DNA of 41,919 nucleotides from a virus, in the IMG/VR virus record IMGVR_UViG_3300043039_000053, one strand, 5' to 3'. Of the stretch, positions 23,806 to 26,167 are shown piece by piece. Position numbers and translations under genes: made by a program. Positions within the stretch are counted from its first letter, which is position 1, and each line of letters opens with the position of its first letter. A model generated the notes under the pieces. The model did no database searches, was not told the origin of the DNA, and worked only from the letters and a program-made list of their open reading frames with translations.

Positions 23806-23828
23806 AAAAAAGCCCGCGTAATGCGGGC
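23806..23828 (-). terminator. rho-independent terminator closing the four-gene accessory operon
   Basis: The minus strand reads GCCCGC-auuac-GCGGGC followed by UUUUUU. Confidence 0.8.
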
Positions 23829-24012
23829 AAGTGAGCTAACAACGGAATGCCCCGATTACTGCCGCCATCGGGGGTGGGCGGGGAAGATGGCCCCATCGTG
23901 CCAAAGGCAGAGGCCGGGGAGTTGCCCACCAAGGCGACCGCTGTCTCGCAATCCATTAGGCGGGCAGTGTGGCAGCCGACCCGGAATGACCAGCCTGGCG
24001 CGTGCCACGGGG

Positions 24013-24435
24013 TTAGTATAACCGCATCCGCACAATAAACACCATTGCCTCACCGAGCAAACCTACCTGCGGCTGCACCCGATAGCGTGTATACGTCAGT
24101 GCCGGGTAGGCCATGGGGCAAACCTTGGTATTATCGCCCTCACGCCCCGCACCGTAGCAGCGTTCATAGCCGCGCATAACGCCAGCGTGTAACGACCCCC
24201 GCCAATGCCCCCACTGTCTCTGCCAGCCATACCCCGCAACCCATGTCTCGCGGCCATAGGAGTTCGTGAACGTCCCGGCCATGTAGTTTTTATACTCGAC
24301 AAGCGTGGCCTTGTGGGTCTCGGTGTAGTCGCCTGAGCTTAGGTGTGTTGACCAGCCGCCGGCCAACAGGGCTAGTTCTGCGTGGGCTGGGTTGCAGGCG
24401 GCTAGGAGGAGTGCTAGGAGGATCGCGAGTTTCAT
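24013..24435 (-). CDS. secreted/lipoprotein small outer-membrane beta-barrel protein, PagP-like
   Basis: ATG 24435 (ATGA overlap) gives the signal [29 protein letters not shown] and the terminal ...VRMRLY resemble PagP IAGYGWESTW and ...MRFQF (recalled alignment). Confidence 0.4.
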
Positions 24436-24752
24436 GGTTTGGGCTCCAGGTTGTCGAGTTCGGCGAGGAGGGCGCGGGCAGCTTCCTGAGCTTGCGCACT
24501 TGGCATTATCGGATCGTCTTGTATCGCCCTGCACTCACCGTGCGCCACCCAAGCCAAAGTCGCAGTTACTTCCCGCAAAGCCTCCCGCAAGCGGTCGTAG
24601 TTGTTGACGCAGTGTACGATGTGGCGCGTCAGATCAGGCGTCGCACCGATTAGCTCAATAATGCATCCATCTTGATCAACGATGCTGCAGTCCATCCCAA
24701 AATCAAGTGGGCTTACCTCGAGCTCAGCTCTGAGGCTGTATGGCTCACTCAT
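24432..24752 (-). CDS. hypothetical protein (106 aa)
   Basis: ATG 24752 overlaps the upstream stop (ATGAGTGA) and is preceded by GGGGA. It ends in an ATGA overlap. Confidence 0.55.
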   Translation of the reverse strand: MSEPYSLRAELEVSPLDFGMDCSIVDQDGCIIELIGATPDLTRHIVHCVNNYDRLREALREVTATLAWVAHGECRAIQDDPIMPSAQAQEAARALLAELDNLEPKP

Positions 24753-24939
24753 TGTTATTATCCCCGCCCTTAACGGCGCTTTGGTTGTTGGTGGCAGGCT
24801 TACCCGCGTTAAGCACCTTATGCGCCTCCACGGCCTTCCTGAGGCCGTCAGCGTAGCCGTTGCCGATCTGGGCCAGGTAGTCATAGTCCTCTTGCTTGAT
24901 GTAGAGGTTTCGGCGGTTTTTGTCGGTTGGGCGGGTCAT
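24745..24939 (-). CDS. small protein, possibly ribbon-helix-helix
   Basis: 64 aa. RRNLYIKQEDYDYLAQI has a beta-strand-then-helix pattern typical of RHH proteins. TAATG overlap with the upstream gene. Confidence 0.45.
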   Translation of the reverse strand: MTRPTDKNRRNLYIKQEDYDYLAQIGNGYADGLRKAVEAHKVLNAGKPATNNQSAVKGGDNNNE

Positions 24940-26105
24940 TAGATCGGCTCCCCGTTGATGTCTTCGGACAGGCTGAGAATCTTATCAAACAGCCAGTTTT
25001 GCATTTTTCGGTCGAAGTCCTTGCAGCCCAACTTGTTGTGCACCCACTCCTCCATAAGCGTGCTGGCAAGTTGCTTTGTGCCCATCTGAAACGGCAGCTC
25101 TGACAGGTAAATCACGCCATCCAGTGCGCGGCCCATCACGCCATCGCCTAGCCCCGAGACCGTTTTGATCGGGAAAATATTCACGCTCACGTCAATCTTT
25201 GCCAGATGGCTAACGGCCTTATCAAGCATCTTGCGCTGAACGGCGGTCATCTCAAACTCTGGCCAATCGCCTTTGATGGCATCGACCTTGGAGGCAACAA
25301 CACGGGCGGACTCGCAGACACCGGCATCCGATTTCATCAGCTCGCCGCAAACCTCAAGAAACGCATCGCTTGCCCGCCAATCTGGGTCAAAGCCAATCCT
25401 TGCCTCGCCATGCTCGCCTCCGCGCAACACCTTACGCAGCATTGCCTTATCCGAGCAGTGATTTTGCCAAGTGCGCTGAATGGGCCAGAACAACTGGTAG
25501 TCGTGCTTTGCGGTTCGGTCTTCGGTCAAATCAACCGTGCCGGTTATGTTGTAGCTGAAAAGCTGATTATCTACCGCGTTACGAACCGCCACACCGCGAT
25601 AGTAGATGAACGGCTTGCCGCCCTTAAAAACTTGAACGCCACCCGTATCAAGCAATGGCTCACCGTCGATAAAATAGTCTCTCTGCTGTGTGAACGCCCG
25701 GAAAATTTCTTGGCAATCGACCTCGATCACCGTGTCGTAGTTTGAGTCGATCCCGCCCGCAATGACGCCGCCCTCATCCCTGGCGTTGCAGTACAGCTCA
25801 CGAAACGCCATCCAAGGTTCCCAGTTGATCCCCATGCGGGTCGTAAATCCGGCAGGCTGATCATTGACGTACACAACGCCAAATTCTTTTCCCCGGATCT
25901 CTTCACGCTTGGCGGTAAACTCAAACATGCCGCTGACCGTCGAAACCTTGATCGACCCGCCAAGGCGCAACACGATGGCGACAGCGTACTTAAAGCCGGT
26001 ACCGAAAAACCCAATGGCCTCGTCGTTGTCTTTGGCCGACACGCCCATGGTCATCATGGCGCGAATGTCAAAATCGCCGTTGTTCATGAAATAGACTTTG
26101 CTCAT
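24939..26105 (-). CDS. hypothetical 388-aa protein (first gene of the accessory operon)
   Basis: ATG 26105 follows GGGGAAG. It contains IGFFGTGFKYA and RELYCNARDEGG, which resemble GHKL G2 and N boxes but in the reverse of the canonical order. Confidence 0.6.
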   Translation of the reverse strand: MSKVYFMNNGDFDIRAMMTMGVSAKDNDEAIGFFGTGFKYAVAIVLRLGGSIKVSTVSGMFEFTAKREEIRGKEFGVVYVNDQPAGFTTRMGINWEPWMAFRELYCNARDEGGVIAGGIDSNYDTVIEVDCQEIFRAFTQQRDYFIDGEPLLDTGGVQVFKGGKPFIYYRGVAVRNAVDNQLFSYNITGTVDLTEDRTAKHDYQLFWPIQRTWQNHCSDKAMLRKVLRGGEHGEARIGFDPDWRASDAFLEVCGELMKSDAGVCESARVVASKVDAIKGDWPEFEMTAVQRKMLDKAVSHLAKIDVSVNIFPIKTVSGLGDGVMGRALDGVIYLSELPFQMGTKQLASTLMEEWVHNKLGCKDFDRKMQNWLFDKILSLSEDINGEPI

Positions 26106-26139
26106 CTCATCTTCCCCGTTCCGTTGTCTTGATAATTCT

Positions 26140-26167
26140 ATTATACACACCTACACACCTTGTGCAA
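26140..26167 (-). promoter_or_regulatory. sigma70-like promoter TTGCAC-N16-TATAAT
   Basis: Read on the minus strand directly after the ninG stop, about 35 nt upstream of ATG 26105. Confidence 0.6.

Follow-up and report, generated by a model that had tools for sequence, protein, structure and literature searches.

A probable mosaic of accessory genes and a separately conserved junction element between ninG and terS of a phage genome

In lambdoid phages, the early right operon closes, past ninB and ninG, with small genes that are chained by overlapping stop and start codons and are present or absent between close relatives, and an outer-membrane protein gene adjoins the late-gene boundary (lambda bor and lom and the HK97/HK022-type phages exemplify this nin region and its morons). 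The interval described here, positions 23806-26167 of a 41,919-nucleotide stretch of viral DNA (IMG/VR record IMGVR_UViG_3300043039_000053, referred to as the window), shares each of these traits. It differs from the lambdoid arrangement in that there is no recognisable Q and no deviation in base composition, the lysis genes have been shifted to the opposite end of the structural gene block, and ORF4, the outer-membrane protein gene, overlaps the gene upstream and so lacks a promoter and terminator of its own. With a probability of roughly 60%, we read the interval as the promoter-distal end of the early (replication/nin) region, made up of a mosaic of four independently assorting accessory genes and a separately conserved early/late junction element, and not as a co-adapted system. 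The features are as follows:

26228-26812, minus strand: ninG/rap (phrog_171, E 2.4e-31; PF05766 NinG in the JGI call)
26140-26167, minus strand: sigma-70-like promoter candidate TTGCAC-N16-TATAAT, TTGCACAAGGTGTGTAGGTGTGTATAAT, from reading the sequence
24939-26105, minus strand: ORF1, 388 aa, ATG start and TAA stop, with a putative N-terminal sacsin/GHKL-like domain, a middle domain and a putative C-terminal zincin-like domain with E352-E353-x-x-H356...D363
24745-24939, minus strand: ORF2, 64 aa
24432-24752, minus strand: ORF3, 106 aa from M1 at 24752
24013-24435, minus strand: ORF4, 140 aa
23923-24020, minus strand: junction element part A, TATACTAAC overlapping the ORF4 stop, with HP1 (24008-23969) and HP2 (23966-23923)
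23886-23922, minus strand: junction element part B, ACTCCCCGGCCTCTGCC...GGGGCCATC, found in all 7 contigs that carry the element
23806-23885, minus strand: tail of the untranslated stretch, with a hairpin (CCCCGAT...ATCGGGG) and an intrinsic terminator
23806-23828, minus strand: the terminator itself, GCCCGC-ATTAC-GCGGGC followed by T6, from a terminator scan
23333-23776, minus strand: terS (phrog_606, E 5.5e-61, match from residue 1 at 23776; PF16677 GP3_package in the JGI call)
2551-3511, minus strand: probable lysis cassette, read by eye, with an M15-like 153-aa protein, a 62-aa membrane protein and an overlapping 81/78-aa pair, the second with a lipobox

The chain of four minus-strand ORFs reported in the first-pass annotation (388, 64, 106 and 140 aa, overlapping by 1-8 nt) was re-read exactly. 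The junctions are TAATG between ORF1 and ORF2 (1-nt overlap), ATGAGTGA between ORF2 and ORF3 (8 nt) and ATGA between ORF3 and ORF4 (4 nt), and these overlaps may couple translation of the genes. Independent JGI gene calls for a near-identical contig give 388, 64, 87 and 140 aa; the sole start ambiguity is in ORF3, which begins at either M1 (24752) or M20 (24695, 87 aa). The flanking genes are those originally assumed, with NinB (phrog_319) upstream of the locus, NinG (phrog_171) and terS (phrog_606), and it is indeed accessory genes that fill the nin/Q slot. ninG/rap is the last recognisable nin-type gene of the early region, while terS is the start of the late/packaging operon. Base composition of ORF1-4 (GC 0.54-0.59, GC3 0.61-0.75) is within the range of the neighbouring genes. 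The first three products had not been placed in any family, and searches of the curated Pfam and NCBIfam families likewise gave no match above threshold for ORF1-3. No PADLOC system model matched.

The promoter-like sequence claimed after ninG is present at 26167-26140 (-), 60 nt past the ninG stop codon (26228-26230) and 34 nt ahead of the ORF1 ATG. Its -10 is perfect and its -35 agrees with the consensus at just 3/6 positions, which is why a consensus scan of 23000-27000 with a -35 threshold of at least 4/6 listed no promoter. The window contains a single TTG-N19-TATAAT where 0.18 would be expected, and at least one copy was found in 17/100 shuffles, so that the site taken alone exceeds chance by only a narrow margin. 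Two relatives, L006 and L007, preserve the -10 and the leader downstream of it; in L006, where the sequence upstream differs, the site reads TTTACA-N16-TATAAT, and this retention speaks for a real promoter. As the terminator scan found no terminator-like site between ninG and ORF1, read-through from the upstream early genes is most likely the main source of transcription, with the sigma-70-type promoter as a supplement. The predicted end of the transcript in this phage is the intrinsic terminator ahead of terS. A single transcript of ORF1-4 would be framed by a promoter-like and a terminator-like site, the latter being part of the separately conserved element.

The four genes had been described as self-contained, a description that was to be given up if the 388-aa protein turned out to be an ordinary nin or replication protein found without the other three. 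Among 49 loci encoding an ORF1 relative, which were searched with ORF2-4 by tblastn, ORF1 stands without the other three genes in 47, and in many phages it is sited in early or replication regions; by that condition, the description fails. ORF3 and ORF4 were found only in the two closest loci (ORF1 identity 96% and 91%) and ORF2 only in L007; a divergent ORF2-type gene in L006 was recognised later. All four gene types are therefore found together only in two near-identical relatives, and there with extra genes in between: in L007, genes of 89, 59 and 148 aa that the window lacks at this place, and in L006, a different ORF2-type gene plus an inserted 195-aa gene. The 47 downstream neighbours of ORF1 fall into approximately 30 unrelated groups, with no conserved partner. 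For example, ORF1 follows the primase gene in YuA and Sonora, is beside Gam and DNA-binding genes in AH02, follows RusA in L178, precedes HNH, helicase and primase genes in L179 and is among small early genes in L180.

The remaining components assort in the same manner. L053 has a primase gene, an ORF2-type gene, an ORF3-type gene, a 189-aa gene and ORF4, with no ORF1, and L052 has the junction element without any of ORF1-4, both of which further undercut a four-gene unit. L176 has only the ORF3-X-ORF4 end, with an ORF2-type gene after the junction element. In L052 and L175, the junction element is present while ORF1, ORF3 and ORF4 are absent; a 61-aa gene adjoins the element in place of ORF4, and L052 retains approximately 25 nt resembling the ORF4 3' end. 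The component genes do not co-occur across carrier genomes, as those of a cassette would. As is typical of morons, ORF4 and the extra L007 genes come and go between neighbours that adjoin each other in related phages; two other moron traits, an own promoter and terminator and a deviating composition, are lacking, as ORF2-4 overlap the preceding gene and their GC content is normal. The three closest contigs agree in the order ORF1, ORF2-type, ORF3-type, ORF4, and the series ORF2-ORF3-X-ORF4 recurs in L053, so some functional linkage among ORF2-4 is possible. Because the contigs sharing ORF1-4 are all close relatives, within-clade co-occurrence statistics are weak either way.

ORF2 matches no family in Pfam, PHROG, NCBIfam or PADLOC. 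It carries an IGNG motif within a strand/helix/G-N-G/helix pattern (read by eye), has homologues in L007, L175, L006 (divergent), L053 and L176 and is probably a small DNA-binding protein. The specific suggestion that it is RHH-like found no confirmation: a 6-sequence ORF2 profile had no match in the PDB, and hhalign against a sequence given as P22 Arc produced a probability of 0.1%. The last ~12 aa of ORF2 come from the tail of the 89-aa gene that follows ORF2 in L007 (a 30-nt match at 100%) and, judged by this match, ORF2 is a recombinant with a C-terminal tail from a neighbouring gene. Another copy of the L007 89-aa gene is found in the window at 864-1094 (+). ORF3 has 19 homologues, some with a precomputed PF27050 assignment. 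Its C-terminal half is 93% identical to a 121-aa protein of L006 and 42% identical to a 110-aa protein of L007, while the N-terminal halves are unrelated. On these alignments, the C-terminal half is a shared module carried on variable N-termini, and ORF3 would be a small two-module protein.

ORF4 had been annotated as either an exported beta-barrel or a lipoprotein. The AF2 model shows a signal helix and 8 strands, with the mature protein opening with strand A at residue 21, and Foldseek searches with this model identified OmpA-TM, OmpW, NspA and designed TM barrels. The protein has an A-x-A|E cleavage site and a C-terminus ending in ...RMRLY. Based on the model, ORF4 is a Sec-exported 8-stranded outer-membrane barrel of the classic moron type. 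A lipoprotein is unlikely as a family trait: the signal-peptidase I site is found in all 11 ORF4 homologues and a signal-peptide Cys in 3/11. ORF4-type genes are found in 43 phage records, mostly of Vibrio phages, where they are present alone.

ORF4 belongs to phrog_3600 (E 8e-26), which PHROG labels as PagP. The Pfam PagP family did not match ORF4 at E<=1, a PDB sequence search gave no match and PagP structures were absent among the best 50 Foldseek matches. hhalign comparisons with PagP gave probabilities of 3-26% (best E 7e-4, at 26%), pairing ORF4 FTNSY..AGYGW with PagP FKDSW..AGYGW. What ORF4 has in common with PagP is the 8-stranded outer-membrane barrel. An invariant His (H31) and Asn-Ser (N58, S59) may also correspond to H33 and D76-S77 of PagP; in the AF2 model, the His (end of strand A) and the Asn-Ser (end of strand C) are on the outer-leaflet side. 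It differs in being approximately 40 residues shorter, in lacking the N-terminal amphipathic helix of the PagP fold and in having Asn in place of the catalytic Asp. As these invariant residues appear to occupy the PagP catalytic places, ORF4 probably binds or modifies LPS or the envelope, and such an action would probably lead to lysogenic conversion or exclusion.

ORF1 belongs to phrog_8203 (E 2.8e-80; 73 phage records) and to a family of 4,206 clusters at 50% identity that has a constant length of approximately 390 aa and is found in lambdoid, YuA-type, Bordetella, Stenotrophomonas and many metagenomic phages. Its AF2 model has a pLDDT of 92 and a low-confidence lid between G1 and G2. The N-terminus resembles an ATP-binding domain of the sacsin/GHKL type in circularly permuted form and is apparently joined to a zincin-like domain; the scores behind both assignments stay under threshold (36 bits where the cutoff is 50 bits; Foldseek E 0.06). 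All three GHKL boxes are present and conserved: N-box-like R-E-L-x-C-N-x-x-D-E-G-G, G1-like N-N-G-x-F-D and G2-like G-F-F-G-T-G-F-K. E103, N107, D110, N8-G10-D13, G32, G35, G37 and K39 vary little or not at all across 320 homologues. The boxes come in the order G1, G2, N-box, in place of the canonical N-box, G1, G2. The sacsin-MORC type model NF047352 scored 29 bits against native ORF1 and rose to 36 bits solely when residues 92-131 were placed before residues 1-91, the one arrangement in which the alignment to the model is collinear; controls scored 27-28 bits. Pfam HATPase_c did not match native ORF1 and matched 1/20 permuted sequences (E 0.21), and a PDB sequence search with ORF1 gave no match.

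Foldseek with the ORF1 model identified selecase and metallopeptidases, along with weak topo VI-B and rIIA matches. Locally, the C-terminal ~100 residues matched selecase with a probability of 0.96-0.97 (E 0.06-0.16) and phage metallopeptidase and SprT-like models with a probability of 0.9-0.99 at weak E-values (0.05-0.3); no peptidase family matched the ORF1 sequence. The motif here is EExxH and not HExxH, with Glu at the first position in 316/320 homologues. We infer that ORF1 would be a cytoplasmic stand-alone enzyme with a Bergerat-type ATP site, in which the N-box helix has moved behind G1 and G2, coupled to an EExxH...D hydrolytic centre. Its early-region position suggests that it acts on a macromolecule of host or phage early in infection. 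We know of no description of a zincin variant fused to a GHKL fold in permuted form.

The 184-nt untranslated stretch and strong terminator noted before terS were both located as described, with the terminator beginning exactly 184 nt past the ORF4 stop. The first 135 nt of this stretch are conserved as an element by themselves: their identity is 93-96% across 7 contigs whose flanks differ, and they lie at the early/late boundary in every one. Part B is just upstream of the first late gene in the relatives. There is no gap between parts A and B in the window; the gap is approximately 60 nt in L006, L007 and L176 and holds a gp49-like gene in L052 and L053, and in L175 part B is directly 3' of HP1. 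The terminator-bearing tail is found in 3/7 contigs (the window, L006 and L176), only where packaging rather than lysis genes follow; in L007, L052, L053 and L175, endolysin, holin or spanin genes come directly after the element. In the HP1/HP2 consensus, 5 changes are one-sided and wobble-compatible, and folding the untranslated stretch as a whole gives a z-score of -1.37. Rfam 15 gave no gathering-threshold match over 23600-24200 (best: anti-hemB, 20 bits against 49.5). The element may act in cis on late-gene expression.

One alternative is that the locus controls the late genes, with an ORF2-type protein, alone or with others, acting on the junction element to cause initiation there or read-through of the pre-terS terminator, as an analogue of lambda Q with PR'-qut-tR', or with the element itself acting as a protein-independent, put-like cis RNA. 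ORF1-4 occupy the Q slot from ninG to the late genes, and the ~215 nt from TATACT to the end of the terminator, right before the first late gene, are comparable in layout to the lambda PR'-tR' leader. The near-identity of the element at a fixed boundary while flanking genes vary, the presence of an ORF2-type gene in 6/7 element contigs (at varying positions, and in L176 between the element and terS) and the pairing-compatibility of all stem substitutions in HP1 and HP2 also agree with this explanation. However, conservation sets in sharply at TATACT with no conserved -35 upstream in the 7 contigs, no Q-like family in Pfam, PHROG or NCBIfam matches ORF1-4, and the DNA-binding fold of ORF2 is without confirmation. 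L052 has the element, yet no ORF2-type gene within 6.9 kb upstream, and the stems show 0 compensatory changes, with a z-score of only -1.37 for the stretch. With the terminated leader confined to 3/7 contigs and no Rfam match, we consider late-gene control of this kind unlikely.

Tight overlaps and a shared promoter/terminator frame are equally expected of a functional operon, a point against the mosaic reading. They would suit an integrated defence, anti-defence or superinfection-exclusion cassette with ORF1 as enzyme, ORF2 as regulator, ORF3 as adaptor and ORF4 as envelope effector, as would the same gene types in the same order in L006 and L007 and the weak resemblance (E 0.015-0.05) of the ORF1 N-terminus to TmtA, a Tiamat defence protein, in its GHKL region. 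We regard such a cassette as quite improbable, because ORF1 lacks a conserved partner and also occurs alone in lytic YuA-type phages, ORF4-type genes stand alone in Vibrio phages, the nearest relatives have unrelated genes inserted among the four, ORF2 arose by recombination and no PADLOC model matches. A diverged lysis or lysis-accessory module is very improbable. Lambdoid phages have their lysis cassette in the slot between nin and terminase genes, ORF4 is an envelope protein and its L007 homologue is directly upstream of endolysin; however, the lysis genes of the relatives are downstream of the element and not among ORF1-4, none of which resembles a holin, endolysin or spanin in Pfam or PHROG, and a probable lysis cassette of the window lies elsewhere, at 2551-3511, which argues that the slot is not a disguised lysis module.

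Under the preferred mosaic reading, the interval is of little import as a four-gene system: it adds one more case of a nin-type early region whose mosaic accessory tail ends with an outer-membrane moron. Attention is due to the predicted, very widespread enzyme ORF1 and to the junction element. It is possible, if somewhat doubtful, that ORF1 represents a very large uncharacterised family of early enzymes in which a permuted GHKL ATPase drives a non-canonical EExxH...D metallohydrolase or, as a second possibility, that the 135-nt element is a new cis-acting late-gene control RNA. The ORF1 family is among the larger phage families annotated without a function, and two invariant catalytic centres are a testable prediction. 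The element is a sharply bounded, near-identical non-coding mark of the early/late boundary in a heavily shuffled clade lacking a recognisable Q, which makes the late-gene switch directly testable.

Compared with GHKL ATPases, ORF1 scores below every curated cutoff and has Asn in place of the adenine-contacting G1 Asp; it shares the N-box, G1 and G2 motifs of the sacsin-MORC type and differs in their order. Like the minimal zincins (selecase/minigluzincins, SprT-like and M48-like proteins), it has a helix with x-E-x-x-H followed by an acidic ligand candidate, D363; unlike them, it has a conserved Glu where HExxH carries its first zinc-binding His. T4 rIIA is a phage early protein with an N-terminal GHKL domain and a different C-terminal part (PMC7824862), and ORF1 is likewise an early protein pairing a GHKL-like domain with another C-terminal part. 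Should the proposal for ORF1 hold, the protein would be a protease or remodeller that depends on ATP and serves host takeover or anti-defence, a loose parallel to rIIA. The junction element differs from lambda PR'-qut-tR' (6S RNA) and HK022 put in having no sigma-70 -35, no Q homologue, no terminator in 4/7 copies, no sequence or Rfam similarity and no covariation support. In common with them, it is a conserved leader of approximately 200 nt with two adjacent stem-loops and a strong terminator right before the first late gene, and its inheritance, as one unit, is independent of the packaging genes downstream.

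The interval between ninG and terS is best read as the accessory end of the early region, mosaic in make-up, followed by an independent junction element (probability roughly 0.6); the biochemical roles of its gene products are ones that we infer. The window is a phage contig of ~42 kb, the majority of its genes are on the minus strand, and a near-identical JGI contig exists. The genes of this region are as follows:

26812-26228, minus strand: ninG (phrog_171, E-value: 2.4e-31)
26105-24939, minus strand: ORF1, 388 aa
24939-24745, minus strand: ORF2, 64 aa
24752-24432, minus strand: ORF3, 106 aa
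24435-24013, minus strand: ORF4, 140 aa
23776-23333, minus strand: terS (phrog_606, E-value: 5.5e-61)

The overlapping arrangement of the four ORFs described in the first-pass annotation was recovered in full, with junctions TAATG, ATGAGTGA and ATGA, and independent JGI gene calls agree except at the start of ORF3 (M20, giving 87 aa). GC and GC3 of ORF1-4 are the same as those of the neighbouring genes, and megablast of this region against GenBank phages produced no match. The promoter candidate reported ahead of ORF1 (TTGCAC-N16-TATAAT, 26167-26140) is present, 60 nt past the ninG stop and 34 nt ahead of the ORF1 ATG; a consensus scan is silent here because the -35 matches at only 3 of 6 positions. 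TTG-N19-TATAAT occurs once in the window (0.18 expected; at least one in 17 of 100 shuffles). The -10 and leader are kept in two relatives, in one of which (contig L006) the upstream sequence differs and carries TTTACA-N16-TATAAT. A terminator scan shows no terminator-like site between ninG and ORF1, and finds the previously noted terminator GCCCGC-ATTAC-GCGGGC-T6 at 23828-23806, beginning 184 nt past the ORF4 stop. Extension of ORF1 to a GTG at 26150 was ruled out, as homologues begin MSKVYF and the extension would overlap the promoter.

We searched 49 ORF1 loci (3 annotated phages, 2 MAG contigs and 44 IMG/VR contigs) for ORF2-4. ORF3- and ORF4-like sequences were found in two, L006 and L007, which are the closest (96% and 91% ORF1 identity, respectively), and ORF2 was found by this search in L007 alone. 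When the genes directly downstream of ORF1 are compared for 47 homologues, ~30 unrelated groups emerge, of five members at most. In Sonora and YuA, ORF1 is located after primase; in AH02, it adjoins Gam and DNA-binding genes. It follows a RecA-dependent nuclease and RusA in L178 (with eight unrelated small genes and then terL downstream), precedes HNH, DEAD helicase and primase genes in L179, and lies among small early genes in the 99-kb phage L180. Because ORF2-4 are absent from most loci and the early contexts are so varied, ORF1 is an ordinary stand-alone gene of early/replication regions. The self-contained four-gene unit proposed at first is thus not upheld, the finding of ORF1 as an ordinary nin-region or replication protein that can occur without the other three having been set beforehand as the outcome that refutes it.

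ORF1 has no Pfam family match, but is a full-length member of phrog_8203 (E-value: 2.8e-80), a function-unknown group. Relatives were found by tblastn in 73 GenBank phage records, including YuA/M6-type Pseudomonas phages, Bordetella CN1-type phages, Stenotrophomonas phage Sonora and Pseudomonas phage AH02. Nearly all of the matches are labelled "hypothetical protein"; a single record (AN14) has a "hydrolase, metallopeptidase" feature beneath the match. A word-indexed search gave 920 homologues and an exhaustive profile search 4,206 clusters (50% identity) at E ≤ 1e-3, with 2,143 at E ≤ 1e-30; almost all of these have 380-410 aa and align over their full length. Nothing of relevance came from literature searches on this family, on YuA gp29 or on phage GHKL domains with a permuted order.

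The AlphaFold2 model of ORF1 (62-sequence alignment, pLDDT 92) shows local similarities only in Foldseek comparison with the PDB: for the C-terminal part, the matches are selecase/minigluzincins (probability 0.96-0.97, E-value: 0.06-0.16) and another zinc peptidase, and topo VI-B is matched weakly. Against BFVD, it matches uncharacterised phage proteins (best E-value: 3e-19) and, locally, phage models of SprT-like and "metallopeptidase" type; rIIA is a weak match (E-value: 0.016). Residues 3-39 match the G1/G2 part of the NCBIfam sacsin-type ATP-binding domain NF047352 (25.8 bits, profile positions 27-68), and an N-box-like helix, RELYCNAxDEGG (residues 102-113), comes after the G boxes rather than before them. 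When residues 92-131 were moved ahead of residues 1-91, the score against NF047352 was 36.0 bits in one collinear stretch (positions 4-69), compared to 29.0 bits for the native order, and 20 of 20 permuted homologues matched. Controls scored no better than native (27.2 bits for a mock segment, 132-171; 28.2 bits for a reversed N-box segment). A circularly permuted Bergerat fold for the N-terminal domain is supported by this gain over the controls, but unproven, as 36.0 bits is still under the 50-bit cutoff and HATPase_c was unresponsive (one Pfam match among 20 permuted N-domains, E-value: 0.21).

In a 320-sequence alignment with identity down to ~28%, the (near-)invariant residues of ORF1 are N8, G10, D13, G21, K25, G32, G35, G37 and K39 around the G boxes, W95, R102, E103, N107, D110 and E111 around the N-box-like helix, E195 and R197 further on, and E352, E353, H356, D363 and Q369 in the C-terminal part. 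Such invariance points to two catalytic-looking centres, both under strict selection.

ORF2-type proteins from six contigs have in common the core KNR-N-x-x-I...L...IGNG...G-x-R-x-A, with a strand/helix/turn/helix pattern that is RHH-like as judged by eye; hhalign against a sequence taken as that of P22 Arc gave nothing. ORF3 has 19 homologues, several with a precomputed PF27050 assignment, and sharing is confined to the C-terminal half (ARHIVHCVNNYDRLREAL...LLAELDNLE), the N-terminal halves being different.

ORF4 matches phrog_3600 (E-value: 8e-26; category "moron", label PagP). It has ten close homologues and is found in 43 phage records, mostly of Vibrio phages including large lytic ones; several of these records are annotated PagP, presumably carried over from the PHROG label. 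All homologues have a signal peptide ending in A-x-A ahead of E, and their C-termini end in an aromatic residue, like outer-membrane beta-signals. The AlphaFold2 model (pLDDT 79) consists of a signal helix and eight strands, and its Foldseek matches are small 8-stranded outer-membrane barrels (OmpA-TM, OmpW, NspA, OprF-N and designed TM barrels), with PagP absent among the top 50. Of the earlier alternatives, an exported beta-barrel or a lipoprotein, the barrel is retained as a prediction, while the lipoprotein was rejected as a family trait, the lipobox Cys occurring in only 3 of 11 homologues. In hhalign comparisons using an E. coli PagP sequence checked against 3gp6/1thq, a narrow ORF4 profile gave an E-value of 0.014 (probability 3%) and a broader one, including four Vibrio-phage homologues, 7e-4 (probability 26%), placing ORF4 FTN58S59Y..AGYGW over PagP FKD76S77W..AGYGW. 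At the outer ends of strands A and C, ORF4 has the invariant residues H31, N58 and S59. PagP has an N-terminal helix and a catalytic Asp, whereas ORF4 has neither; ORF4 is at most a PagP-like small barrel. PDB searches with profiles of ORF1 (and of its permuted N-domain), ORF2 and ORF4 (two profiles) returned nothing useful.

The mosaic character of the interval is seen in the gene orders of three related contigs:

L007: ninB, ninG, ORF1, ORF2, 89 aa, 110 aa (ORF3-type C-half), 59 aa, 148 aa, ORF4-type (141 aa, without the Cys), element, M15 endolysin, HNH
L006: ORF1, divergent ORF2-type 70-aa gene, other genes, 121 aa (ORF3-type, C-half 93% identical), 195 aa, ORF4-type, element with terminator, 138 aa, unrelated terS/terL
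L053: primase, 70 aa, ORF2-type, ORF3-type (118 aa), 189 aa, ORF4 (91% nucleotide identity), element part A, gp49-like gene, part B, lysozyme, holin/spanins; ORF1 absent

Window ORF2 itself is recombinant: its first 52 aa match L007 ORF2, and its tail (TNNQSAVKG...) matches that of the L007 89-aa gene, via a 30-nt identical stretch. A 76-aa gene at 864-1094 (plus strand) of the window is 84% identical to this 89-aa gene, whose neighbours in L007 are the homologues of ORF2 and ORF3; the gene is small and mobile, and occupies two different places in related phages. The 148-195-aa gene ahead of ORF4 in the relatives (L007 8122-8568; L053 3131-2562, minus strand; L006 2376-2963) is missing from the window and shows weak matches to a MORC2 chromo-like domain (E-value: 0.002) and DUF1627.

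The conserved non-coding junction element 3' of ORF4 has these parts in the window:

24020-23923: part A
24008-23969: hairpin HP1, in part A
23966-23923: hairpin HP2, in part A
23922-23886: part B

Part A shows 93-96% identity across the window, L006, L007, L052, L053 and L176, and part B is found in all seven contigs. Conservation sets in sharply at TATACT regardless of the upstream gene, and the sequence 3' of the ORF4 stop is better conserved than ORF4, whose protein is 51-54% identical to its L006 and L007 homologues. The seventh contig, L175, retains TATACTAAC and HP1 but not HP2, so that HP1 abuts part B. Within the stems, five substitutions keep pairing by wobble and none is a compensatory double change; one pair is lost in L006 and three at the HP2 base in L007, whose copy departs from the others at the 3' end of the element. 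Parts A and B are contiguous in the window, separated by ~60 nt in L006, L007 and L176, and separated by a gp49-like gene in L052 and L053. Lysis genes lie directly 3' of the element in L007, L052, L053 and L175, while an extra hairpin, the intrinsic terminator and packaging genes come next, in that order, in the window, L006 and L176. L052 and L175 carry the element without ORF1, ORF3 and ORF4, and L052 also lacks an ORF2-type gene. Given this independent conservation and occurrence, the terminator and the "184-nt UTR" are part of an early/late junction module and not of ORF1-4.

No Rfam family matches the untranslated stretch, and the fold energy of its entire length is unremarkable (z = -1.37). 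A metagenome scan with an element 16-mer returned at least 120 matching stretches; none has the element among the matches listed, and these were taken as chance matches. A covariance model of part A, run on 52 sources, picked up no diverged copies, and L174, from a pattern scan, was discarded as a chance match within a coding region. TGGCACG-N4-AGGCT in HP1 has the correct GG/GC spacing for a sigma-54 site, but was rejected as such: an enhancer-binding protein is absent and these bases form the hairpin stem. GYTATACT occurs four times in the window, always on the minus strand (19603-19610, 23783-23790, 24015-24022 and 41230-41237), against 0.8 expected and with four reached in 1 of 100 shuffles. 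All copies are coding-strand and intergenic; one opens the element, one is 7 nt ahead of the terS ATG and one precedes a terminator hairpin that follows the Mu-F-like gene. GYTATACT may be a shared regulatory word. In L175, the product of the first gene after the element (9638-9138, minus strand) is 166 aa long and has a helix-turn-helix-like segment (YLGIAPGTFRNRISAGY) in its C-terminal part; it may be a late regulator or else a small terminase.

Other explanations of the interval fare less well. That the ORF2-type protein and the element form a Q/qut-like or put-like late switch would suit their position and the ORF2-type gene in six of the seven element contigs, but a -35, a Q homologue and covariation are all absent, and we consider such a switch unlikely. 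An integrated defence or anti-defence cassette, as originally proposed, is distinctly improbable, with ORF1 travelling without ORF2-4. A lysis module, the least credible reading of ORF1-4, was rejected because a probable lysis cassette is found at 2551-3511 (minus strand). Read by eye, this cassette lies after the tail-fibre genes, not before the terminase, and contains a 153-aa M15-like protein (no match in PHROGs), a 62-aa membrane protein and an overlapping 81-aa/78-aa pair, the 78-aa member having a lipobox (TVGC). Its position differs from that of the lysis genes of L007, L052, L053 and L175, which are at the early/late junction.

Elsewhere in the window, the early rightward promoter has a good candidate in TTGCAA-N17-TATACT followed by AAGGAGG (29618-29646, minus strand), which lies upstream of a 114-aa ORF (29663-29319) and faces the divergent plus-strand Rad52-like, Gp157 and 107-aa genes. 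A full-length group I intron match (Rfam RF00028, 86.8 bits, E-value: 6e-21) at 31272-31500 (plus strand) begins within the last codons of a 107-aa ORF (30976-31299), which ends ...DDFDDDK. A 413-aa minus-strand ORF (31981-33222) is located in a segment with 83% DNA identity to "transposase" genes of the Ralstonia phages Dimitile and Cimandef, the sole match of the 25-kb right half in megablast against GenBank phages. Intron and transposase segment may represent an intron/IS (IStron-like) association.

Two things are new here, both as yet unproven: a structural hypothesis for ORF1 and its large dark-matter phage family, and the identification of a non-coding element conserved at the early/late junction. 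The second centre of ORF1 reads EExxH...D, in contrast to the canonical HExxH. The cluster as such is of a known sort, that of nin-region accessory genes and morons.
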